The notes beneath the pieces were generated by a model. The model saw only the letters and a program-made list of their open reading frames with translations. It had not been told where the DNA came from and did not search any database. The position numbers and the translations under genes were made by a program. Shown in pieces: positions 1 through 18,600 of a stretch of 32,000 nucleotides of DNA (position 1 is the stretch's first letter; each line of letters begins with the position of its first letter). Origin of the DNA: Candidatus Iainarchaeum sp. (GTDB lineage: Archaea; Iainarchaeota; Iainarchaeia; Iainarchaeales; JAZDEL01); assembly GCA_043808785.1 (NCBI GenBank), contig JAZDEL010000002.1, positions 30,001 to 62,000 of the forward strand, in the 5' to 3' direction.

Positions 1-437
1 AGGAGGCGCACCAGTTCGCGCCCGAAAAAGTGCGGCACGAGGGGGCGATTTCAAAAAGCATAATCCGCACAATCGCGAGGGAGGGGAGAAAATTCGGCGC
101 CGCCCTTTGCTTGGTTTCCCAGAGGCCCGTGCATTTGGACACAACAGTTCTTAGCCAGTGCAACACCCACCTCATACTTCGCGTAACAAACCCTTACGAT
201 TTGGACCACATAGGGAAAAGTTCCGAGGGCATAGACAGGGCAAGCCAGGATATGATTACCTCGCTGCGCGTGGGGGAAGCGTTGCTTGTAGGGGAAGCGG
301 TTAACAACCCGATATTCTTCCGCGTGCGCAAGCGCAGGTCCGCGCCCTCGAAGCACGAGGTTCCTTTGGAGGAAACGGCAAGGCTTTACGAGGAGAACAG
401 GGAGCAGGCGAAAGAAGAGGCGGAAGAATTTTTGTGA
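1..437 (+). CDS. HerA/DUF87-type ATPase (FtsK-HerA superfamily), C-terminal fragment; the 5' end lies outside the window
   Basis: The frame is open from base 3 (EAHQFAPEK...). The C-terminal core reads REGRKFGAALCLVSQRPVHLDTTVLSQCNTHLILRVTNP, followed by GEALLVGEAV, which is typical of the archaeal HerA/DUF87 C-terminus. Confidence 0.7.
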   Translation, partial: EAHQFAPEKVRHEGAISKSIIRTIAREGRKFGAALCLVSQRPVHLDTTVLSQCNTHLILRVTNPYDLDHIGKSSEGIDRASQDMITSLRVGEALLVGEAVNNPIFFRVRKRRSAPSKHEVPLEETARLYEENREQAKEEAEEFL

Positions 438-482: not shown

Positions 483-698
483 TCAACAGAGGTTACCATC
501 TTCCGGCCCCTCCTGTTCCCGAACTCCAAACGCTCGGCAGGGGGTCAGGCATTCTATGTGCAGTTCTATGGCTTCCTTCAAGTTAGCTATGGCTTCCTCC
601 ACGGTATCGCCCTGCGAAGCGATATCCAAATTAGGAGACCAAGCGGAAAAAGAGCCGCCCTCAGGAATTATCACTGCCAAAAAATCAAACGTATTCAT
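483..698 (-). CDS. hicB: HicB-like / UPF0150 family antitoxin-like protein (71 aa)
   Basis: FLAVIIPEGGSFSAWSPNLDIASQGDTVEEAIANLKEAIELHIE matches the HicB N-terminal (RNase H-like fold) signature. It sits 12 nt downstream of the SemiSWEET gene. Confidence 0.65.
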   Translation of the reverse strand: MNTFDFLAVIIPEGGSFSAWSPNLDIASQGDTVEEAIANLKEAIELHIECLTPCRAFGVREQEGPEDGNLC

Positions 699-710
699 GT
701 AACCGCCGCC

Positions 711-986
711 CTAATTATATTTAACCTTCATCCAAACCAGCGCGGTAACTATTGTAATTGATGCCGTGTTCGTGGCAATCACCGGCATGTTTTCAATCAT
801 TATTCCGTAGGCGAGCCAGAGCACGCTTCCCGCGAGGATTATAAGCAGGGTCCAGAGTGAGAGGTCCTTTGCGCTTTTAGTTGTCCATGTCCTGAACAAC
901 TGCGGCAGCCATGCCGCGACAATCAACAGCCCCGCGAAAAACCCTACCACTTCCGCGAACCCCGCAACATCCGCAAGCACGTTCAA
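711..986 (-). CDS. SemiSWEET / PQ-loop (MtN3-like) 3-TM transporter subunit (91 aa)
   Basis: Three hydrophobic helices. The PQ motif (AAWLPQLFRTWTTKSAKDLS) lies after TM1. Length is typical of prokaryotic SemiSWEETs. Confidence 0.75.
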   Translation of the reverse strand: MNVLADVAGFAEVVGFFAGLLIVAAWLPQLFRTWTTKSAKDLSLWTLLIILAGSVLWLAYGIMIENMPVIATNTASITIVTALVWMKVKYN

Positions 987-993
987 CGCACCT

Positions 994-1890
994 TCAGCAT
1001 TTCTGCATTATGCAATCCTTATATTGGCTGATGTAAGCCTGATAAAGGTATCTGACAAAAGGCCTCTCCTTTTTCTTTGCGTCCACTTCCCGAAGGGTGA
1101 GGTAATACAGCATTTTTTCGGAATTGTAGATGTTTAGAAGGGGATAATTGTTCTTCATCAGTATGTAATTCATGAGCAGCCTCGAAACCCTCCCGTTTCC
1201 GTCCATGAACGGGTGTATGCGTGCAATGCGCAGGTGCACGAGCGCTGCAAGCTCGAAAGTGTGCAGCATGCCCTCCGCCTGCCCGAACCACGAGAACAGC
1301 CTTGCAAGTTCAGCAGGCACTTCCTCCGGCTTAGGGGGCAGGTAATTGCCGACTATATTCTGCCTTTCCCTTATTTTTCCCGCCTCGGGGTGCACGCCCT
1401 TCATTTCAAGAGCATGCAGCTTCAGCAGCAGTTCTTTGCCAAATTCACCCTTATAATCGAAAAGGAAGTCTATGCACGCCTTCATGTTCTTTACTTCCCT
1501 GATGCTGCGCTTCGCGTATTTTGTTTTCGGCTTTTTCCCGTCGATTATGTTCCCCGTGTCCTCATAACTTACAGGGCAGCCCTCAATCGCGTTCGTGTCA
1601 TAAATGAACCCTATAAGCCTTTCCTTCCCGCTTTTCCACATCCCCTTCCCTATTTTGTGCCTTTTCAGGTAGCCCTCCCTAAGCAGTTCTATTACTTTCA
1701 CCTGTTTCGGCGTCATCAGCCTTTTCACCGGCTGCGCAAGTTCGAGCCCCTTTTCCGCAGTTCCCAGGTTGGAGAGGTCCTTCCCCACGTATTTGCTTAT
1801 CTTTTTCCACTTGCCCTTCGAAACGCGGATATTCCTGGAAAGGTAGAAGTATTCCTTTCCCGCGACCTTCTTCCGTTCTATATATGCCAT
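994..1890 (-). CDS. fic: Fic/DOC family protein (probable AMPylase) with an N-terminal inhibitory-helix motif (class II Fic)
   Basis: Canonical Fic motif HPFMDGNGRVSR. A TNAIEG stretch upstream fits the (S/T)xxxE(G/N) auto-inhibition motif. I prefer the ATG at 1890 (MAYIERKK) because a TTTTAAA box lies about 27 nt upstream; the ORF track start at 1938 would place that box and the repeats inside the CDS. Confidence 0.85.
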   Translation of the reverse strand: MAYIERKKVAGKEYFYLSRNIRVSKGKWKKISKYVGKDLSNLGTAEKGLELAQPVKRLMTPKQVKVIELLREGYLKRHKIGKGMWKSGKERLIGFIYDTNAIEGCPVSYEDTGNIIDGKKPKTKYAKRSIREVKNMKACIDFLFDYKGEFGKELLLKLHALEMKGVHPEAGKIRERQNIVGNYLPPKPEEVPAELARLFSWFGQAEGMLHTFELAALVHLRIARIHPFMDGNGRVSRLLMNYILMKNNYPLLNIYNSEKMLYYLTLREVDAKKKERPFVRYLYQAYISQYKDCIMQKC

Positions 1891-1897
1891 GGTATAA

Positions 1898-2058
1898 TTA
1901 GGGCGCACAAAGTTTAAAAGCCTATTTAGGGCGCACAATTTTCATTTTTTGAAACGTGCGCCCTAAATCACATGCCTGCGTAGGGTTCCTTCTGGCGGCA
2001 AATTAGGGCGTTCGTGTTTCGCACAGGAAATCATTCTTCGGCGTTTCGCACCGGAAAT
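1898..2058. promoter_or_regulatory. Divergent promoter region carrying two operator-like repeat families
   Basis: TTAGGGCGCAC occurs at 1898-1908 and 1926-1936. Its exact reverse complement GTGCGCCCTAA is at 1956-1966, and a partial TTAGGGCG copy is at 2003-2010. GTTTCGCACNGGAAAT occurs at 2016-2031 and 2043-2058 (15/16 identical). TATA-like boxes: TTTTAAA on the minus strand between the first two repeats, and GATAAATA at about 2074-2083 for the plus-strand gene. Confidence 0.6.
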
Positions 2059-2106
2059 GCACTCTCCCCCGAAAACGGATAAATAGCCCCGAAACAATGT
2101 TCGTTC

Positions 2107-3609
2107 ATGCCCAATACTCCCGATACGCACTACCTTACAGGCGCGCATTACCTCCCTGAACGGAAGGAGGTTGCCGCCGAGTTCCGCAGCCCCGCGGGCG
2201 GCAGGGTAATTGAGCGCTTCAAATTTTTCCCTTCTTTTTACTTGGGCACCGGCGGCATTGAACCCAGCCTTCTTGAAGAGGTTCTTTCCCTTTACGACGG
2301 CAGGCGCTTCATGTGCAGGGGCATTGCCCCCGGCAGGCTGCAGGTTACGGCTTCCGCCTATGCCGACCTGCGGAAAATCGCAAATTTGCTTTCCTCTTCC
2401 CTTATGCTTAACCTTTCCGTTCCGGAACCGGAAAGGCAGTTCCTGCTGCAAAATGGCTGGAGCTATTTCGACGCCTTTGAAAAGGCGCAGGAAAAGTTCA
2501 GGAAAATTCCTCCCCCCTCTCTCCCGGCAGTACAGCCCGATTTCCTTGCGCTGCCCCTGCAGGAGGCGCTGCGTGAACTCATGCTCTCCGATGCGCAGGG
2601 AGCGGAACTGCTGGCAAAGCGCATCGCGCTCTCAAACATCCTGTGTACTCGCCCCCAAAACCTTCCCAACGGAACCTCCGCAATGCTGGACCTTATGCTT
2701 GAAAACTTATTCTTTTCCTGCGCACTGCCCGCACCTACGGGCAGTGCGTTCCCCCGCAATCGCACTGAAAATTGCGCATGCGCGGAAAAGGAAAACCCCA
2801 TACCTCACGAGAACCGGCCTGCAGAGCCCTATTTTCACTGCGCTCTGCCTCTGCCTGATGCGGAATTCCTCCTCAATCTGGGGCAGGAGACAATGAATTG
2901 CGGATGCTGCAGGCCAGAAACACTTTCCGCGGAAAACATTTCCCCCACGGCGCTTGTGAATGTGCTGTTCAATTCCGACGGAATATTCTTCGAATCCGCA
3001 TACACGCGCTGGGCGGAGGAATTCCATAATTCAAACCCGGAAAGGGAGCGCAGGGAGCGCTGGAGAATGGAATGGTCTTTGCCGTCAATTCCCGCAGGCC
3101 CTTTCTTCAGGGGGCAGGCTGCAATGGTTCCGTTCGCCGACCTGCAAATGCTCACGGAGAAGGGCTGTGTTTCGGTGCTTCCCCACGGTCACGAACTTTC
3201 ATGGTTCTGCACGAAGCACGAATCCGCAATATCGCGGCAGATAAGGGAGTCGAACGAAAGGGTTTCCCTGCTCGGTGCAATGGTTGCTGAGCGCGAGAAA
3301 ACGCACCTCAAAAGCCACAAAATACTTTTCGCATCCGCGCTCGGGCAGGATGCCGAGCACCTTTATCTTTCTAACCTGAACTCATCCCTTTCAGAACTCA
3401 TAAGCCTCATGCCCGCACACCTTGCAAACCCGAATTCAAGGTTCTATTCGAGGCAATTGGCGGATGCAATCTCCTGCATACGGCAGGGCATGGTAAGGAA
3501 TGCAAGGGTTATCGGTTCGGAGCAAGCCCCCGTGCTTTCCCCCGCAGGAAAGGGCGCGGGAATAATGCTGCTCCTGACGAGGCAGTTCTCGCTTTCCGCG
3601 CGAGGTTAG
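2107..3609 (+). CDS. Hypothetical 500-aa protein; possible truncated, catalytically degenerate family B DNA polymerase homolog
   Basis: Long ORF with no competing frame. By-eye alignment to Thermococcus-type PolB gives these correspondences. FFPSFY (aa 40-45) matches [20 protein letters not shown] matches DIPFAKRYLIDKGL. FDAF (121-124) sits at the Exo I FDIE position. [22 protein letters not shown] matches [31 protein letters not shown] (251-258) sits at motif A (DxxSLYPS). CRPETL matches [15 protein letters not shown] (405-413) sits at motif B (KxxxNSxYG). VIGSEQA (468-474) sits at motif C (YSDTDG). No thumb domain is present. Confidence 0.35.
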   Translation: [500 protein letters not shown]

Positions 3610-3635
3610 GTGCCGAAATGTCGCATATCGCAGGG

Positions 3636-3674
3636 TTTTTAAATATAATTATATATAATTATTTTGGTATTTTT
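3636..3674 (+). promoter_or_regulatory. AT-rich TATA-like promoter block upstream of vapB
   Basis: TTTTTAAATATAATTATATATAATTATTTTGGTATTTTT lies immediately 5' of the ATG at 3675. It is the most AT-rich stretch in this part of the window. Confidence 0.45.
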
Positions 3675-3932
3675 ATGGACGTGCAGGTAGTAGTGAGGAA
3701 GTGGGGCAACTCGCTCGGCGTAACCCTGCCGAAGCAGGTTGTGGAAACCCAGGGTATCAGGGAAAACGAGCGGCTGTCCATAGAGGTTAACCGGAAGAGG
3801 CCTGTGCGCATAAAGGATTTTTTCGGGCTTGCGCGCGGCTGGAAGATTGACGCGCAGAAGATGAAAGATGCGGCAAGGAGGGCTGACCTTGAAAGGGACA
3901 GAAAACTTTCTGGACTCCTACGCGCTCATTGA
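3675..3932 (+). CDS. vapB: AbrB/MazE/SpoVT-family antitoxin (VapB-like)
   Basis: MDVQVVVRKWGNSLGVTLPKQVVETQGIRENERLSIEV is the swapped-hairpin AbrB/SpoVT signature (WGNSLGVxLPK). I prefer the internal ATG at 3675 over the track start at 3618, which would encode an AT-rich hydrophobic leader. Confidence 0.8.
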   Translation: MDVQVVVRKWGNSLGVTLPKQVVETQGIRENERLSIEVNRKRPVRIKDFFGLARGWKIDAQKMKDAARRADLERDRKLSGLLRAH

Positions 3933-4260
3933 GATACTGCGCGGCAACCCGCGTTATGCGGCGATTGCCGAGTATACTGCCGTTTCAACCGTGGCAAATT
4001 TGGTCGAGGTGGCATACTGCCTGCTTTACGAGTTCCCGAAAGAGAAGGTCTCCGAAATGGTAAATTCGCTCGGAATCAAGGTTCTTGATGTGCGTGCGGA
4101 CCATGTTATGCAGGTGGCTGAATTCAGGAAGGAGCACTCGAAAAAAGGGTTTTCATATATCGACTGCATCGGCTATGTTCTGGCGAAAGAGAGCCGCCTG
4201 CCGTTCGTGACAGGCGACAGGCAGTTCGAGGGCATGCCGAATGTGGAATTCATAAAATGA
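3868..4260 (+). CDS. vapC: PIN-domain ribonuclease toxin (VapC-like)
   Basis: FLDSYALIEIL supplies the first acidic residue, the VEVAY region the second, and VTGDRQF the C-terminal one. It overlaps the vapB 3' end. The start could be the ATG at 3868 or the in-frame TTG at 3889. Confidence 0.8.
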   Translation: MRQGGLTLKGTENFLDSYALIEILRGNPRYAAIAEYTAVSTVANLVEVAYCLLYEFPKEKVSEMVNSLGIKVLDVRADHVMQVAEFRKEHSKKGFSYIDCIGYVLAKESRLPFVTGDRQFEGMPNVEFIK

Positions 4261-4384: not shown

Positions 4385-4600
4385 ATGGACAAGCTCACAC
4401 GCTTCGAGAAAACCCGCCTTATAAGCGCCCGCGCGCTCCAGCTTTCTCTGGGCGCGCCCTTGCTTGTTGATGCGGGAAAGGAAGGCAAGGACCTTTCCAT
4501 GAACGAGCTTGCAAAACTCGAGCTTGAGAAAAAGGTAATTCCGCTTGCCGTATTGCGCGAATTCCCGGACGGAAGAATAGTGCGCGTAGAGGTGGCATGA
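4385..4600 (+). CDS. rpoK: DNA-directed RNA polymerase subunit Rpo6 (RpoK/omega-like)
   Basis: TRFEKTRLISARALQLSLGAP is the conserved Rpo6/RPB6 core. Its stop overlaps the next gene's start (ATGA). Confidence 0.9.
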   Translation: MDKLTRFEKTRLISARALQLSLGAPLLVDAGKEGKDLSMNELAKLELEKKVIPLAVLREFPDGRIVRVEVA

Positions 4601-4794
4601 TGGGCAAGGCAGTGCCCCGCGGAATAAAGACAAAGGCGGAACAGCTTGTTTCAAGGTTCCCTGAGCAGTTCTCCGAGGACTACGAAAAAAACAAGGCATT
4701 CATCGATTCCCTCGCTTTGGGTTTCCTGAAATCCACGCGCAACCTGATTGCCGGTTATGCCGTGAACGTTGTAAAGAAAAAGAAGAAGCGCTAG
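4597..4794 (+). CDS. rps17e: 30S ribosomal protein eS17 (S17e)
   Basis: The IKTKAEQLVSRFPEQFSEDYEKNK...TRNLIAGYAV pattern matches archaeal S17e. The C-terminal tail is poly-Lys. Confidence 0.85.
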   Translation: MMGKAVPRGIKTKAEQLVSRFPEQFSEDYEKNKAFIDSLALGFLKSTRNLIAGYAVNVVKKKKKR

Positions 4795-4876: not shown

Positions 4877-6928
4877 TCAGCCAACTGCTTCAACAACAAC
4901 CGCAGTGGCGCCGTCCCCTGCCTTGTCCCTCTCGAGCCTGTAGAGGTTTGAGGAAGCCGCGTTCTCCATCTCCCTGTCGTGCGTTATTATGAAAACCTGC
5001 TCCACCATCTGCGGCATGTGCCCCTTCATCATTTCCCCGAGCATCTTCACCGCGTTCACGTCAAGGTTATGTGTCGGCTCGTCAAGAATCATCCACGAAA
5101 GGTTCCTCGCAAGTATGAGTGAAACGGCAACCCTTATTGTGAGCGCCACTGCACTCCTTTCCCCTCCGCTGAGAATTCCCTCAGCCCTTATCCATTTCCC
5201 CGAGCGTTCCCTTACGACTATTTCATAACTATCCCCCGAAACCTCGAGTTTTGCCCCTGTGTAATCGCCATAAGGGTAAACCCTTGCCCAGACATCATCC
5301 ATTGCGGAATTCACGGCATCAATTAGCACAGCCCTCAGTTCCGCCTGCGCAGCCATGAGCGCGTTCGTGAACACGGCGAGCTTCGAAGCCGAGCCCCTGA
5401 TAATTGCTGCCTCCTCCTCCATTTCCCCGAGACGCCTTATCATTCCCTCAACTCTTTCCATGCCTCTTTTGGTTTCCTCTATAAGTTCCGCCCTCTGCTT
5501 CAGTTCCTGCCCCATCGCCCTTATTGCGGAGGAAGCCTGCGTAACCTCACGCTTTGCCTTTTCGAATTCCCGTTCATCGAAAGCAAGCGCCTTTATCTTT
5601 GCCGCGGTTTCCTTTTCATCAGCACGCACCTTTGCAAGTTCCTTTTTCTGCGCATCGAGTTTGCCAAGTTGCTCCAACGCAGACTCAAGCCTTGCGTGCC
5701 TTTCCCAGAGTGCATGCAGTTCTTTTTCCGCCTCTTCCCTCCCCCTCTCGTTATTTGCATCCTTTGCTCTTGATGCTTTCAGTTCAGCCTCAAGCGCACC
5801 CTTCTCCTTCCCAAGCGCCCTCAGTGCATCCGCGTTCTCACGGAGCAGTTCCTCCTTCGCCCCTTCCTCAAGCGCGCTCCTGCAAACAGGGCATTTTGCC
5901 TTAACCTCCCTCAGCCTTTCAGTCGCTTCCTTCAGTTCCTTAACCTTGCCCTCGTTCGCCCAGATTTTCCCCGAAAGCGTGCGCACTTCCTCGTTGCATT
6001 TCTTTCTTTCCGCCTCCAGTTCTTTTACCCCTGCCTCAAGCGCCTTTGCCTGCGCCCTGTTTTCCTTAACCTCTTTCTCAAGCGCATCCCCGCTTTCGTG
6101 CTTCGAAGTGGCGTGCACCATTTTTTCAAGCGCCTCTGCCCTGCCCCCTGAAGCGATTAATTCCGCATTCAGCGCGCGGAATTCCCTTTCCGCCTTTTCC
6201 ATTTTTTTAAGTGCAACTTCCTTCCCCCGCAATTCCGCCTCCAGCGCCCTGTGCCTTGCCTCGGCATCCTTCCTTTCCCTCTCCCTCTCCTCAAGCCTTT
6301 TTTTCAGCCCCTTGTAATCAGCGCCCTCGATCTCCCGCTTCTGCGCGTTAAGCCACCTGTCCCTTTCCTCCGCCGCTTTCTTAAGCCTGTTCCCCACAAG
6401 CACCGAATTCGCCCTCGCCTTCTCATACCTGTCAAGCTGGAGCAGTTCGTCCATCTTCTCCTTCCTCTGTGCGGGCGTAAGCCTCAGGAAATAATCCATA
6501 TTGTTCTGCTCGGAATAAATCGCCCTGCTGAAAAGCTCGAAATCAACCTCCAGCACTTCCTCTATGCGCTTTGTGACATCAGTCATCTTCGGGCCTGCAA
6601 TAAGGCGTGCGCCCTCATATGCCTTTCCGTGGTTCTGCCCGCGCCTGTTTATCGTGCGCTCGACCTTGTATTCTTTCCCCGCATAATCGAACTCAAGCAC
6701 AACCCTTGCATGCTCCTGCTCGGCAGGCTTGTTCATTATCACCTCATCCAAAGAAACTTTCCTGTTGTTCAGCGCTGGAAACGTGCCGTAGAGCGCAAAG
6801 CAGACAGCATCCATAACAGCGCTCTTCCCGCTGCCCATCACGCCGACAATTACGTTAGTGCCCCTGCCGAATTCGAACTCGGAGCGGGAATGGCTTTTCC
6901 AGTTTTCGAGTACCAGATGCCTGATCAT
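4877..6928 (-). CDS. rad50: Rad50-type SMC-like ATPase (short, 683 aa) with a zinc hook
   Basis: Walker A GVMGSGKS, Q-loop YSEQNN, central CPVCRSAL hook inside an E/K/A-rich coiled coil, signature LSGGERSAVAL, Walker B MILDEPTHNLD, H-loop IITHD. Confidence 0.9.
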   Translation of the reverse strand: MIRHLVLENWKSHSRSEFEFGRGTNVIVGVMGSGKSAVMDAVCFALYGTFPALNNRKVSLDEVIMNKPAEQEHARVVLEFDYAGKEYKVERTINRRGQNHGKAYEGARLIAGPKMTDVTKRIEEVLEVDFELFSRAIYSEQNNMDYFLRLTPAQRKEKMDELLQLDRYEKARANSVLVGNRLKKAAEERDRWLNAQKREIEGADYKGLKKRLEERERERKDAEARHRALEAELRGKEVALKKMEKAEREFRALNAELIASGGRAEALEKMVHATSKHESGDALEKEVKENRAQAKALEAGVKELEAERKKCNEEVRTLSGKIWANEGKVKELKEATERLREVKAKCPVCRSALEEGAKEELLRENADALRALGKEKGALEAELKASRAKDANNERGREEAEKELHALWERHARLESALEQLGKLDAQKKELAKVRADEKETAAKIKALAFDEREFEKAKREVTQASSAIRAMGQELKQRAELIEETKRGMERVEGMIRRLGEMEEEAAIIRGSASKLAVFTNALMAAQAELRAVLIDAVNSAMDDVWARVYPYGDYTGAKLEVSGDSYEIVVRERSGKWIRAEGILSGGERSAVALTIRVAVSLILARNLSWMILDEPTHNLDVNAVKMLGEMMKGHMPQMVEQVFIITHDREMENAASSNLYRLERDKAGDGATAVVVEAVG

Positions 6929-7408: not shown

Positions 7409-7621
7409 TTAAGGCCCCTTAAACCCGCAATCCCCGCAGGCATATTCCTTGCTTGTCTGCCTGCAGTGCCCGCACCTTATTATTTTCTTCTTCATGCAGC
7501 CGGGGCACTTGAACTCGACGTATTTGTCCGTTACTTCCTTATTGCATGTGCTGCAAACCTTCAAAAGCCCACCTTCCTTCGGCGTGTTGAACAAATAAAT
7601 ATCCTTCAATGGTTCACGCAT
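7409..7621 (-). CDS. Zn-ribbon protein of the COG2888/DUF1610 type (translation-associated, usually linked to aEF-1beta)
   Basis: Four CxxC pairs (CSTC, CPGC, CGHC, CGDC) and a CGFKGP C-terminus. It sits next to ef1b. Confidence 0.8.
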   Translation of the reverse strand: MREPLKDIYLFNTPKEGGLLKVCSTCNKEVTDKYVEFKCPGCMKKKIIRCGHCRQTSKEYACGDCGFKGP

Positions 7622-7685
7622 TCAAGCCGCCGTTTAAGTGAATTATTAAATACTTCCGTGCGGATTGGTTTATAAGGGTTTACGC

Positions 7686-8771
7686 ATGCCTGCGCAGGGA
7701 AACAACACAATCGTGATTTTGGCGGCAATACTGCTGGCTGCGGCGCTTGCCCTTGTTGCTTTGCACCTCCTCCCCAAGCCCGTTATCTCGCCTGTTTCCG
7801 CCTGCACCTTCGACCAGGACAAGTGCATGGGCGCCGCGCCCGATTACTGCTATGCGGGCAAGATTGTAAAGAACTGCATTATGTGCGGCTGCCCTCAGGG
7901 GCAGGCGTGCAACTCCGACGGCACCTGCAGGAAGCTTCTGCTTGCGCAGGAACTTCCCGAAATAAAGGACATGAACCTGAAGAGGGTTATTGTAAGGCAG
8001 GACATCCCCGACCTCGAGGGCTTGGAGGAAAAGCTCGGCGTGCTTAACCCCGTGCTCCCGCCGAAAACCGAATCCCCTTACCAGGTTTATGTAACCCCTT
8101 TTGACCCCGCGGTTATGGAAATTGCGAAGCGCATCAACGGCTCAAAGGCGGCTTACTCGGAAGCGCTTACATGGCTGTGGGTTTCGGAGGAAACGCTCAA
8201 TGGCGAGAGCGAGAAGTGGCTAATGCCCCGCGAGTTCCTGCTCAATACCCCAACATACCCCGCAAACCCTGTTCCGGGCAGGGTTGCGAGCGACTGCGAG
8301 GAGCACGCCAACACCCTTGTCTCGCTGCTGCGCGCTGAGGGCATTTCGGCAGACCACGTTCGCGTTGCCCTCGGAAAGGTAAATTTCCAGGGCAGCATAG
8401 GCGGGCACGCGTGGGTTGAAATCTACGAGAACGGGCAGTGGTTCGCTTTGGAACCTTCAAGTGGCGATTATTGGGATGACGAAGGAGCGGCACTGCACAA
8501 AAGCAATGGCTTATCCTACGATTACTTCCGCACGCACTTTTACCCTTTCAGGGAAATATGGTTCTATTACAACGACACATATTTCTACGATTTGAAGAAA
8601 AGCAAGGGCAACACCCCCTCCTGGTGGACGCCCGATATTCCGAGGCTTGTTTCCACTTCGGGAATGCCGCCGATTGTGCGAAACGACGGCACTTCGGTAC
8701 CCGCATCCGGCGCGGGTTCGGGAATGCCCCCTGTGCAGGGAAGCGAAATGCCGCCCGTTGAAGCGGCATAG
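7686..8771 (+). CDS. Membrane-anchored transglutaminase-like cysteine protease-fold protein with an N-terminal Cys-rich module
   Basis: N-terminal TM helix (IVILAAILLAAALALVALHLL) and a Cys-rich segment (CTFDQDKC...CIMCGC...C). The transglutaminase core triad context is DCEEHANTLVSLLRAEGI, then GGHAWVEIY, then ALEPSSG. The track start at 7665 is also possible. Confidence 0.7.
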   Translation: MPAQGNNTIVILAAILLAAALALVALHLLPKPVISPVSACTFDQDKCMGAAPDYCYAGKIVKNCIMCGCPQGQACNSDGTCRKLLLAQELPEIKDMNLKRVIVRQDIPDLEGLEEKLGVLNPVLPPKTESPYQVYVTPFDPAVMEIAKRINGSKAAYSEALTWLWVSEETLNGESEKWLMPREFLLNTPTYPANPVPGRVASDCEEHANTLVSLLRAEGISADHVRVALGKVNFQGSIGGHAWVEIYENGQWFALEPSSGDYWDDEGAALHKSNGLSYDYFRTHFYPFREIWFYYNDTYFYDLKKSKGNTPSWWTPDIPRLVSTSGMPPIVRNDGTSVPASGAGSGMPPVQGSEMPPVEAA

Positions 8772-13380: not shown

Positions 13381-14082
13381 TCAAAATCCTATCCATTCCA
13401 CTTTCGGTTTCTTCCCTTCCTCAAGTTCAACCATCACGGCATTCCCGTCCTTCAACGCGCCAGTATTTATGCACAGCGTTTCCCCGAGCATCTCGCTGCC
13501 CTTTGCCTCGTGCACGTGGCCGCACACGAAGAGCAGGGGCGTGAATTTTTCAATCGCGCCCCTTATTGCCCTCATGCCGAGATCGTGCCCTGCCGCAGTC
13601 CTCGAAAGCGAGGTTCCGAAGGGAGGGGAGTGCGCAACAAGAACCGTCCGCTTTCCCTCGCAGCCCTCCAGCATTTTCGCAAGGTATTTCTCCGCCTCAA
13701 GTTCCCCGGTGTTCACGCGGTAATAGGTGTTCACGGGCTTCGCGCCCCCGAGCCCGGCAAAAACAAAACCCCCAACCTCCACAGTTTCTTTGTGCAGGTT
13801 AACTCCCCCTTCATTCAGCAAACCAATAACCTCCCTGCTGTCCATATTCCCCGGCACCGCAAGCACGCGCGCAAACGAAAGCGCGTCAAGTATCTCTGCG
13901 GCAACCTTTGCCGAACCCTCCTTTGTGAAATCCCCTGCAACAACAACCAAATCGACATTTCCCGCCTTAATGCCGACATTGCCTTTGCCAGCCGCGCGGT
14001 TATGGTTATGTAGAAGTTTATCCCTGAGCCTTTCCGCTGCGGCAATATCCGAATGCGCATCCGCAACAAACACAACCTTCAT
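13381..14082 (-). CDS. Calcineurin-like metallophosphoesterase
   Basis: Motifs appear in the expected order: VADAHSD, VVAGDFT, GNMD, AHSPP, GHVHE. Confidence 0.85.
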   Translation of the reverse strand: MKVVFVADAHSDIAAAERLRDKLLHNHNRAAGKGNVGIKAGNVDLVVVAGDFTKEGSAKVAAEILDALSFARVLAVPGNMDSREVIGLLNEGGVNLHKETVEVGGFVFAGLGGAKPVNTYYRVNTGELEAEKYLAKMLEGCEGKRTVLVAHSPPFGTSLSRTAAGHDLGMRAIRGAIEKFTPLLFVCGHVHEAKGSEMLGETLCINTGALKDGNAVMVELEEGKKPKVEWIGF

Positions 14083-18234: not shown

Positions 18235-18600
18235 GTGGACTTGCTTGTTATTTTGCTTGCAGCCATTGTTGTGCTCCTTGCGGTTGCGCTCTACTTCCTC
18301 TTCATGCATTCGCGCAGGCTTTCCTCCGAGATTGAGGACCTTGGTTTCAGAAAAGCGAGCCAGTCCGTGAAATACGGAAAATTAACGGAGCAGTTCATCC
18401 CTTTCACGGAACAATTCCCGTTCTCGCGCGAGAACTTCAGGTTCATAGGCATGCCCATTGACGGCATAGCATTCGAGGATGATAAGATTTACATCTGCGA
18501 GTTCAAAGCCGCTGGCGGAACGCTCACCTCAAAGCAGAAAAACATAAAGCGCCTTGTGGACGAGGGAAAGGTTGAATGGTTTGAGTTCAGGCTTGGGTAA
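18235..18600 (+). CDS. Membrane-anchored PD-(D/E)xK endonuclease related to archaeal Holliday junction resolvase (Endonuc_Holl-like)
   Basis: N-terminal TM helix LLVILLAAIVVLLAVALYFLF. The core is GKLTEQFIPFTEQFPFSRENFRFIGMPIDGIAFEDDKIYICEFKAAGGTLTSKQKNIKRLVDEGKV, with D...ExK residues at PID and CEFK. AAGGAGG lies 7 nt upstream of the GTG start. Confidence 0.65.
   Translation: MDLLVILLAAIVVLLAVALYFLFMHSRRLSSEIEDLGFRKASQSVKYGKLTEQFIPFTEQFPFSRENFRFIGMPIDGIAFEDDKIYICEFKAAGGTLTSKQKNIKRLVDEGKVEWFEFRLG

Follow-up and report, generated by a model that had tools for sequence, protein, structure and literature searches.

A stripped-down, apparently inactive family B DNA polymerase homologue conserved beside herA in Iainarchaeota

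A gene of Candidatus Iainarchaeum sp., here termed X, is supported as encoding a conserved, stripped-down homologue of the family B DNA polymerases (PolBs). It lies in a stretch of 32,000 nucleotides (assembly GCA_043808785.1, contig JAZDEL010000002.1, positions 30,001 to 62,000), the whole of which is referred to below as the window. Since the proofreading domain, the thumb and the catalytic residues have all been lost, the product is probably a non-enzymatic accessory factor of DNA repair or replication. The scales tip, if not heavily, towards an inactive mini-PolB that serves throughout the Iainarchaeota as a structural subunit, with NurA-HerA (and Rad50) as its likely partner.

The reading frame is exactly where a first-pass annotation, made from the sequence alone, had placed it:

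2107..3609, plus strand: gene X, inactivated mini-PolB homologue of 500 aa, with its stop codon at 3607-3609 (reading frame, family, AlphaFold2, Foldseek, dN/dS)

Purifying selection on the gene is strong, with a dN/dS of 0.105 against an 89%-identical relative and a pN/pS below 0.21 in each quarter of its length. Its family comprises 176 clusters (at 50% identity) of proteins of ~500 aa, the intact length being maintained over all of them, and in genome records it is almost exclusive to the Iainarchaeota (DPANN archaea). A five-sequence alignment served to collect 44 related loci, in every one of which X is single-copy; column counts and structure prediction used a family alignment of 82 sequences, a homologue search with which returned the same five proteins only. 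The family is unannotated and invisible to the Pfam, NCBIfam, PADLOC and PHROGs profile libraries: Pfam has no family for the X protein even at E<=10, no model of the other three matches it, and neither the single protein nor the five-sequence profile found a match in Pfam, NCBIfam or the PDB sequences. The two polymerase profiles against which the first-pass annotation had advised a comparison, PF00136 and PF03104, gave no match to X, nor do they figure in the 25 Pfam families hit most often, out of 35 met by the 82 members at E<=1. Nothing specific was found in the literature on a PolB-like family of Iainarchaeota or Diapherotrites, and the family was not found in supplements to, or in the EpsilonN-like-clade and clustering sections of, the 2020 survey of PolB diversity (PMC7544198).

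How, then, is X to be recognized as a PolB? The sequence-level links are marginal (E ~1e-3), and so the homology rests mainly on predicted structure. AlphaFold2, run without templates on the 82 sequences, gave a confident model (pLDDT 88.5, pTM 0.88); an earlier run on five sequences had given a poor one (pLDDT 57), in which the N-terminal domain was already confident and from which Foldseek matched only PolB N-terminal domains, those of Pol epsilon, Sso PolB1 and vaccinia E9. With the 82-sequence model the top 50 Foldseek matches in the PDB are all PolBs, 96 matches have E<=1e-3, the alignments span 640-810 columns, and TMq is 0.37-0.47, highest for Pol epsilon chains (0.43-0.47, as against 0.37-0.40 for KOD/Tgo). 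In BFVD the named top matches are all viral PolBs. As to sequence, the family HMM picks out P. calidifontis PolB among the PDB sequences (E=2.3e-3), motifs A, B and C being colinear, hhalign pairs X residues 172-291 with KOD 330-444 at E=1.3e-3, and tblastn of KOD reaches the motif A region of another member of the family (L033) at E=0.002. With a Thermococcales-only PolB profile (relatives at least 74% identical to KOD) hhalign did not extend beyond residues 172-291. The structure prediction that had been recommended as a check, along with the family HMM, upholds the original proposal of a truncated, catalytically dead PolB homologue, and the N-terminal domain, palm and fingers that make up PolB architecture are all found with AlphaFold2 and Foldseek. 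From the N-terminus to the C-terminus, the parts shared with PolB are as follows:

2107..2514, plus strand: PolB-type N-terminal domain, aa 1-136 (pLDDT at least 94; Foldseek)
2515..2721, plus strand: short linker and three helices, aa 137-205 (hhalign; AlphaFold2 secondary structure)
2824..2856, plus strand: degenerate motif A, aa 240-250 (aligned to LDFSSMYPNIMM of 5mdn and LDFRSLYPSII of KOD)
2875..2910, plus strand: N257-L-G-x-E-T, equivalent of the PolB N-x-S-P-D-T, then C265-x-C267-C268 (alignments)
3226..3423, plus strand: fingers, two long antiparallel helices, aa 374-413 and 416-439 (AlphaFold2; 5mdn and KOD alignments)
3451..3606, plus strand: second palm segment, aa 449-500 (alignments; column counts)

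The N-terminal domain carries a family signature, PERQFLL..W.YFD.F, at aa 108-124, of which F112 is invariant and R110, Q111, L113 and W118 are at least 90% conserved. The linker and its three helices are the sole remnant opposite KOD residues ~141-370, some 35 residues of X (137-171) lying opposite KOD 141-329; the exonuclease core has lost about 155 aa, equivalents of Exo I and Exo II are absent, and X has no 3'-5' exonuclease domain. At the other end, where AlphaFold2 confidence is low (aa 475-500), X terminates ~15-30 residues past the position of motif C; alignment to PolB reveals neither a KxY motif nor a thumb, and an [LI]P...P.[IV] tail present in 76/82 relatives is missing from X. The loss of exonuclease core and thumb that had been proposed is thus borne out after the correction of registers to which we now turn.

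Registers were judged by hhalign and family-HMM alignments to KOD and 5mdn. The motif A region, of low AlphaFold2 confidence, reads EPYFHCALP in X, with Y242 at the position of the Asp, the family consensus being E-[LIF]-D-F-S-x-x-W-x-x-L. Motif B falls at about aa 428-438, where X is without the K, the N and the YG; the aligned positions are S/E/L/L/S/S/L/P/x, and none of these hallmarks is conserved family-wide. The motif C hairpin falls at about aa 474-487, a stretch without acidic residues in X, and the positions aligned to DTD (approximately G481-K-G483 in X) hold D or E in at most 12/82 members. X accordingly has no motif A with a catalytic Asp, no KxxxNSxYG and no DTD, and, at the level of aligned sequence, the columns show motifs B and C to be without catalytic residues across the family. 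Every catalytic motif had been called degenerate at the outset, and column counts on the corrected registers agree, though several of the pairings first offered do not survive, three of the eight being in register and five out of it. FFPSFY does pair with FEPYFY, and a further X segment with FAKRYLIDKGL, hhalign giving the same register for both at a poor P-value (0.17) with the Foldseek N-terminal matches backing the assignment; ...ALPAP pairs with ...ELAPN inside the hhalign match to KOD described above. Out of register are CRPETL as VSPDTL (the latter pairs with N257-LGQETM), DAEFLLNL as motif A, KILFASALG as motif B (which pairs with about S428-H438) and SEQ as DTD, and FDAF, offered as Exo I, is placed by hhalign, with low confidence, in the strand that precedes the deleted exonuclease core.

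X carries a segment of its own after the post-motif-A hairpin and before the fingers:

2911..3207, plus strand: family-specific insertion of ~100 aa, aa 269-367 (alignments; AlphaFold2)
3208..3210, plus strand: invariant C368, fourth cysteine of a putative metal site (82/82)

C265, C267, C268 and C368 are invariant (82/82 members). The last directly precedes the first finger helix and aligns with KOD C442 and Pol2 C763; C268 is aligned to KOD C428. Within the insertion R316, G331 and P332 are invariant and H307, D345 and W366 nearly so, H307 and D345 being conserved in at least 96%. A Cys-rich insert between motifs A and B had been discerned in the first pass; it is indeed there, reaching from C265/C267/C268 to C368, but its length is ~100 aa and not ~70. 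The four cysteines may bind a structural metal, be it Zn or an Fe-S cluster.

The genomic position of X is fixed. Throughout the Iainarchaeota the order is nurA-(HAD)-herA-X-rpoK-rps17e, convergent with rad50, and in the window the following members of this unit were placed:

30..437, plus strand: 3' end of herA (tblastn synteny; Pfam DUF87/HerA in relatives)
4385..4794, plus strand: rpoK (Rpb6) and rps17e, conserved downstream neighbours (synteny)
4877..6928, minus strand: rad50, 683 aa, with zinc hook, convergent to X, no adjacent mre11

By tblastn synteny, herA is upstream of X in 41/44 loci, the remaining three ending at a contig edge, and wherever the contig reaches far enough the order herA-X-rpoK-rps17e followed by convergent rad50 is kept in all 44. 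The genes nurA-(HAD)-herA-X are co-directional; herA directly adjoins X in relatives without insertions, and two of the herA-X gaps are 61 bp (L037) and 95 bp (L015). On the downstream side the genes co-directional with X, rpoK and rps17e, are not those of repair. Synteny extends over more than 15 kb across the phylum and takes in unrelated genes of housekeeping type, such as those of a CCA enzyme and a T2SSE ATPase, so that the adjacency to herA may be frozen gene order and not a sign of shared function. Neither Mre11 nor a canonical PolB was found by tblastn in the window or the 44 loci. A nearby 233-aa metallophosphoesterase was rejected as Mre11, being YfcE-like; that X replaces Mre11 was also considered and remains unsupported speculation.

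What might such a protein do? Deprived of its catalytic residues, it would be unable to polymerise DNA, and it may instead be a DNA-binding or scaffolding subunit, the cleft formed by N-terminal domain, palm and fingers together with the surface of the insertion presumably providing the contacts. The most likely partner would be the co-encoded DNA-end-processing machinery, NurA-HerA (and Rad50). Such a role would have its parallel in other inactivated PolB modules, the C-terminal half of Pol epsilon among them, that have a structural place in DNA-handling complexes.

A different partner, though unlikely, comes into view from the insertion: the inactive scaffold could dock by means of it on GINS, MCM or a replicative polymerase, as does the C-terminal half of Pol epsilon, the essential part of that enzyme, which binds CMG (PMC7544198). 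The part of the insertion concerned is this:

3091..3183, plus strand: segment resembling the GINS B-domain core, aa 329-359 (P-x-GPF-x7-VP[LF]-x-D-A-x-x-L)

Two Pfam models of the GINS B-domain recur below threshold, PSF2_N in 7/82 members and Gins51_C in 2/82, and the single GINS-type match that was mapped (in member P0007) covers residues 314-350, inside the insertion. With hhalign the insertion profile meets PSF2 at P=4.9e-4 over 31 columns with the same GPF-x7-VPL-x-x-A-x-x-L spacing. Two members give weak Pfam matches to DUF1744, the C-terminal half of Pol epsilon, and it is Pol epsilon that has the highest TMq. Against this, all of the GINS matches, of ~31-37 residues, are below the Pfam thresholds (the best scores 17.3 bits, the gathering cut-off being 27), such that the segment is, as a sequence, one of resemblance to the GINS B-domain and not of membership. 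Against the PDB the insertion-only profile recovers neither GINS nor Pol epsilon chains, its one match, to a glutaminase at E=0.41, being due to chance, and no replication gene adjoins X in any locus examined. Rather less probable is a bolder combination, in which X would be a stand-alone archaeal counterpart of features hitherto regarded as peculiar to eukaryotic Pol epsilon, a CysX-like Fe-S (or Zn) site at the foot of a palm insertion in the place of the P-domain, and would, as a non-catalytic scaffold with a GINS-B-like docking module in that insertion, couple resection by NurA-HerA/Rad50 to the replisome; the evidence supports parallels with Pol epsilon in position and topology only, and neither homology of the insertions nor an interaction.

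A structural role, whether with NurA-HerA or at the replisome, is not the only conceivable one. At least in the members with a motif A Asp, the protein could be a cryptic nucleotidyl-transferase whose active site is rearranged, or the equivalents of E240, D242, H307, R316 and D345 could provide some different activity; in favour of an enzyme are the Asp at the motif A position in 63/82 members (77%; N in 12/82, Y in 2/82) and the preceding Glu in 56/82, the conservation of R316, H307 and D345, and the precedent of primer-independent PolBs that function with a single Asp in motif C (PMC7544198). It is nevertheless very unlikely that X is still an enzyme, for the family has no conserved motif C acid, motif B lysine, KxY or thumb, and both X and a close relative have Tyr in place of the motif A Asp. 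That they do so under strong purifying selection implies that the selected function of X does not need this Asp. Its retention in 77% of members is unexplained by a purely structural role.

More fundamentally, X might be no PolB homologue at all, the model being a prediction artefact or a convergent fold and the sequence matches those of chance. The emptiness of Pfam and NCBIfam, sequence E-values that are all only ~1e-3, Foldseek RMSDs of 15-20 A and TM-scores below 0.5 could be marshalled for such a position, yet it is highly improbable: the same motifs line up in one and the same order by three independent methods of sequence comparison, and a confident model made without templates has as its best PDB and named top BFVD matches nothing other than PolBs. 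Low TM-scores and high RMSDs are in any case to be expected of a protein that lacks a 155-aa domain as well as a 200-aa thumb and whose remaining domains hinge.

In the window the conserved unit is interrupted on either side of X, and the intervening features are these:

994..1938, minus strand: Fic-domain gene (SoFic-like), lineage-specific insertion between herA and X (synteny)
1896..2058, no strand assigned: Fic-X intergenic repeats, TTAGGGCGCAC and two copies of GTTTCGCAC[AC]GGAAAT
2078..2086, plus strand: GATAAATAG, archaeal TATA-like box (from sequence; conserved in L006; function inferred)
3618..4260, plus strand: vapB (MazE/AbrB type) and vapC (PIN), lineage-specific insertion between X and rpoK (synteny)

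The TATA-like box is 21-29 nt upstream of the ATG of X, a spacing that suggests a leaderless or short-leader mRNA. The repeats to which the first-pass annotation had drawn attention are real, TTAGGGCGCAC occurring between Fic and X as two direct copies, one inverted and one degenerate, and they are conserved in the nearest relative, L006, where the spacers have diverged. Because the Fic gene is missing from most relatives, the repeats are probably part of the Fic insertion or local operators. Fic and VapBC flank X in the window as had been described, but as incidental insertions outside the conserved unit that most relatives lack: Fic adjoins X in only three of the 44 loci (L006, L007, L032), and L006 has just a vapB remnant, the vapB-vapC pair being absent from the other loci. 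The flanks would be the one reason to regard X as a passenger of a defence or mobile island, or else as a decaying pseudogene, and this is scarcely credible given that Fic and VapBC come and go beside an X whose neighbours are constant, that PADLOC and PHROGs are empty, on which ground an origin in defence systems or phages is dismissed, and that selection and length are as stated above.

The preferred reading, of an inactive mini-PolB in the company of NurA-HerA, is of more than parochial concern. Inactivated PolB modules, that of the Pol epsilon C-terminal half for instance, are central to ideas on the origin of the eukaryotic replicative polymerases, and the X family represents a far more radical reduction of PolB that is yet conserved under purifying selection across an archaeal phylum. 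Its invariant four-cysteine site and conserved insertion sit exactly where Pol epsilon has its CysX/P-domain. Should X prove to be a partner of NurA-HerA or of the replisome, it would be a new and experimentally tractable case of a polymerase fold put to new use as a structural subunit, and an unannotated gene of every Iainarchaeota genome would have a function.

Inactivated PolB modules with structural roles have precedents (PMC7544198, PMC2669801). The B2 group of archaeal PolBs (Rogozin et al. 2008, cited in PMC7544198) has, like X, a substituted active site and a role presumed to be structural and non-catalytic. Unlike X, however, B2 proteins have complete exonuclease and polymerase domains and a thumb and are detected by the Pfam PolB models; X, without this full-length architecture, is ~250-300 aa shorter, lacks exonuclease core and thumb, has the Cys4 site and the 100-aa insertion, and matches nothing in Pfam. 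PolEpsilonC (DUF1744) is likewise a catalytically dead PolB module of structural role (PMC7544198, PMC2669801), but it is much larger, has an inactivated exonuclease-like domain and CysA/CysB zinc modules, and is fused to an active polymerase, whereas X is a stand-alone protein without CysA/CysB. X also differs from protein-primed and casposon PolBs, its motifs being inactive, its chromosomal synteny fixed and a PHROGs match wanting. With the GINS B-domain, the resemblance of aa 329-359 extends from the shared pattern to the strand-strand-helix-strand order (Psf2), but it is short and below the curated thresholds, and X has no GINS A-domain.

It is the catalytic domain of Pol epsilon (Pol2), an active and full-length polymerase unlike X, that is the best Foldseek match (E=7.6e-7, TMq up to 0.47). 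The two have a topology in common – cysteines after N-x-x-P-D-[ST], an insertion of ~85-100 aa, a cysteine before the first finger helix – and X has the Pol epsilon-type arrangement of four cysteines flanking the insertion between motif A and fingers, C265/C267/C268...C368 being colinear with C665/C668/C677...C763 of yeast Pol2. The hhalign alignment of X to Pol2 640-889 is colinear but not significant alone (E=0.11), and the motif C Glu described in PMC7544198 as common to the N-terminal half of Pol epsilon, B10 and G3 is absent from the X family. The insertion profile has no sequence similarity to the P-domain of Pol epsilon and finds no Pol epsilon chain in the PDB; homology to the P-domain is not claimed. 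With KOD and Tgo, finally, X is colinear in its N-terminal landmarks, the S-x-x-G-x-x-x-E-x-x-L helix, the strand of motif A, the turn at N-x-S-P-D-T, the hairpin of the fingers and the helix of the palm, the 100-aa insertion replacing a hairpin of 13 residues in KOD. In PolBs of the Thermococcus type a pair of cysteines (C428/C442) occupies the same two positions as in X, and so the site may be ancestral, with the insertions of X and of Pol epsilon acquired independently.

The ORF of 500 codons that starts with ATG and occupies window positions 2107-3609 on the plus strand (hereafter X) lies exactly where the first-pass annotation placed it. It is a real gene, since relatives were found and comparison with the nearest of them, locus L006 at 89% identity, gives a dN/dS of 0.105 and pN/pS below 0.21 in every gene quarter. 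The protein has no match even at E<=10 among Pfam, NCBIfam and PDB sequences. A word-indexed search retrieved four relatives, L006 and three at 31-34% identity (length coverage 91-100%), and an exhaustive HMMER search with a five-sequence profile gave 176 clusters (counted at 50% identity) at E<=1e-3, the matches listed being mostly of 460-530 aa and the others fragment-like.

A pattern scan in which each species was represented by one genome found 38 loci, 22 of them from Candidatus Iainarchaeum or ainarchaeum and the others archaeal apart from one contig; outside Iainarchaeum-type and plain archaeal records there are only this contig and a 'Micrarchaeota' MAG. The contig (L007, JAFCBY010000044.1) was binned as 'Candidatus Falkowbacteria', of the bacterial CPR, carries the archaeal herA-X-rpoK-rps17e-rad50 block and is probably mis-binned Iainarchaeota. 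As far as contigs reach, all 44 loci compared have herA, X, rpoK and rps17e in this order, with convergent rad50, EF-1beta and the gene for a small zinc-finger protein next in line. The position of X after nurA-herA is fixed, these genes running in one direction and tightly packed (herA-X gaps of 61 bp in locus L037 and 95 bp in L015); in several relatives a HAD-family hydrolase gene separates nurA from herA (L037 3726-4391; L001 7123-7854). Because the syntenic stretch exceeds 15 kb and takes in unrelated housekeeping genes, the adjacency of herA and X by itself speaks only moderately for a functional link. Around X the window has:

483-698, minus strand: HicB-like antitoxin ORF, below threshold, in the inserted block between herA and X
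711-986, minus strand: PQ-loop/MtN3 half-transporter, same block
994-1938, minus strand: SoFic-like Fic gene, same block
1896-2058, Fic-X intergenic region: TTAGGGCGCAC in two direct, one perfect inverted and one degenerate copy
1896-2058, same region: a second repeat, GTTTCGCAC[AC]GGAAAT, twice
21-29 nt 5' of the X ATG, plus strand: TATA-like box GATAAATAG
3618-4260: VapB (MazE/AbrB-type) and VapC (PIN) pair, between X and rpoK
4877-6928, minus strand: rad50, 683 aa, with zinc hook

The flanking Fic gene and VapBC pair are lineage-specific insertions. The block at 483-1938 (minus strand) is missing from most related loci, Fic adjoins X in just three others, and VapBC is met elsewhere only as the vapB remnant of L006. 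Both repeat sets are kept in L006 while the spacers have diverged, and they look like operator sites that might serve the Fic module. nurA-herA is encoded apart from rad50, on the opposite strand. Neither beside rad50 nor anywhere else in the window or the 44 loci is there an Mre11 gene; a 233-aa metallophosphoesterase (13381-14082), considered for that part, was rejected as YfcE-like. The small zinc-finger protein (7409-7621, minus strand; 70 aa, four CxxC pairs) is HVO_2753-like and sits beside EF-1beta throughout the phylum. At 7665-8771 (plus strand) lies a gene, absent at the equivalent position in L001, for a 368-aa protein whose transglutaminase-like core is accompanied by a signal or transmembrane segment and an N-terminal region rich in Cys. 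A 121-aa ORF at 18235-18600 (plus strand) matches PF10107, an endonuclease related to archaeal Holliday junction resolvase, at E=2.7e-14.

The fold of X is PolB-derived. The AlphaFold2 model built from five family sequences was poor (pLDDT 57), and in it only the confident N-terminal part found PolB matches, to the N-terminal domains of Sulfolobus PolB1, vaccinia E9 and Pol epsilon (the last at E=5e-5); the model from an 82-sequence alignment reached pLDDT 88.5 and pTM 0.88, with 395 residues at pLDDT of at least 90. Foldseek searches of the PDB with this model returned 96 matches at E<=1e-3 (best E=7.6e-7), the best 50 all being family B polymerases, with alignments covering 640-810 columns; the catalytic domains of Pol epsilon give a query TM-score of 0.43-0.47, and enzymes of the KOD/Tgo type one of 0.37-0.40. 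In a viral structure library the named top matches were likewise all PolB. At the sequence level three results agree with the predicted structure. The 82-sequence profile finds Pyrobaculum calidifontis PolB (5mdn) at E=2.3e-3, with the family's E-[LI]-DFS-x-x-W-x-x-L...N-L-G-F-E-T opposite LDFSSMYPNIMMKYNLSPDT of motif A and positions 403-487 opposite the motif B helix and motif C hairpin; hhalign pairs X residues 172-291 with KOD 330-444 (E=1.3e-3); and tblastn with KOD matches the motif A region of the member at L033 (E=0.002). Reading the 82-sequence model, source also of the secondary structure, against PolB alignments gives these domains:

1-136: PolB N-terminal domain, with family signature PERQFLL..W.YFD.F
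137-205: short linker and three helices, the sole remnant where KOD has ~141-370
206-296: first palm segment, with motif A strand and N-x-G-x-E-T turn
269-367: family-specific insertion
374-439: fingers, two long antiparallel helices
449-500: second palm segment, stopping soon past the motif C position, without KxY motif or thumb

X has thus lost some 155 aa of exonuclease core, along with its thumb and catalytic residues, and the earlier reading of a truncated, catalytically dead PolB is supported by both model and alignments. Three of the eight motif correspondences then proposed are in register (FFPSFY, a second N-terminal one and ...ALPAP); the other five (VSPDTL, Exo I and motifs A, B and C) were misplaced by ~10-30 residues, and once they are re-registered every catalytic motif is still degenerate. 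The motif A Asp position holds D in 63 of the 82 members, N in 12 and Y in two, of which X is one; K, N and YG of motif B are not conserved; and D or E occupies the DTD-aligned positions in at most 12 of 82. The whole family is therefore without a polymerase active site, and X is among its most degenerate members. X also lacks the C-terminal [LI]P...P.[IV] tail present in 76 of 82 relatives, possibly a consequence of the VapBC insertion.

The family also has conserved features of its own. Invariant across the 82 sequences are P42, F112, C265, C267, C268, R316, G331, P332 and C368, with H307, D345, W366, N257 and N277 at least 96% conserved. The four Cys, a C-x-C-C straight after the N-x-G-x-E-T turn and a lone Cys just ahead of the first finger helix, flank the insertion of 100 aa; the KOD pair C428/C442 aligns with C268 and C368. 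CysX (C665, C668, C677, C763) and the P-domain of yeast Pol2 (Pol epsilon) have the same topological position, and a 2020 survey of PolB diversity describes both as confined to Pol epsilon orthologues (PMC7544198). The colinear X-Pol2 alignment is not significant (E=0.11), and no sequence similarity to the P-domain could be detected with the insertion profile, so that the likeness is a positional parallel only. One stretch of the insertion, residues 329-359 (P-x-GPF-x7-VP[LF]-x-D-A-x-x-L), recalls the GINS B-domain core: below-threshold Pfam matches comprise PSF2_N in 7 of 82 members and Gins51_C in 2 (the only one mapped, in a single member, spans residues 314-350), and hhalign of the insertion profile with human and Xenopus PSF2 gives P=4.9e-4 over 31 columns. 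This sequence resemblance is a lead, not GINS membership.

An archaeal-type DNA polymerase is kept in all DPANN phyla according to one comparison (PMC8407392), which suggests that X would be an additional protein rather than the replicase; neither the window nor any of the 44 loci contains a canonical PolB. We consider it somewhat probable that X is a non-catalytic DNA-binding or scaffolding subunit whose four Cys would hold a structural metal (Zn or Fe-S), its likeliest partners being NurA-HerA and Rad50; this would be analogous to the structural role of dead PolB modules elsewhere (PMC7544198, PMC2669801). The main rival, in which the same scaffold would use its GINS-B-like insertion to dock on the replisome, is a less likely prospect. 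Cryptic enzymatic activity is improbable, given that X has lost the motif A Asp and selection has nonetheless been kept, and a spurious PolB assignment, set beside the structural and sequence matches, very improbable indeed. Least credible is an origin as mobile element or pseudogene, which synteny and dN/dS contradict.

As a non-catalytic subunit X would join the inactivated PolB homologues already known, of which the archaeal B2 group is one and the C-terminal half of Pol epsilon another. The family was found neither in the EpsilonN-like-clade and clustering sections of the 2020 survey, nor by a term search of its main text and supplements, nor in the other literature searched. It differs from both known cases in that whole domains are gone and not just active-site residues, in bearing a Cys4 site and a conserved insertion, in a range confined to Iainarchaeota, and in being missed by the PolB profiles.
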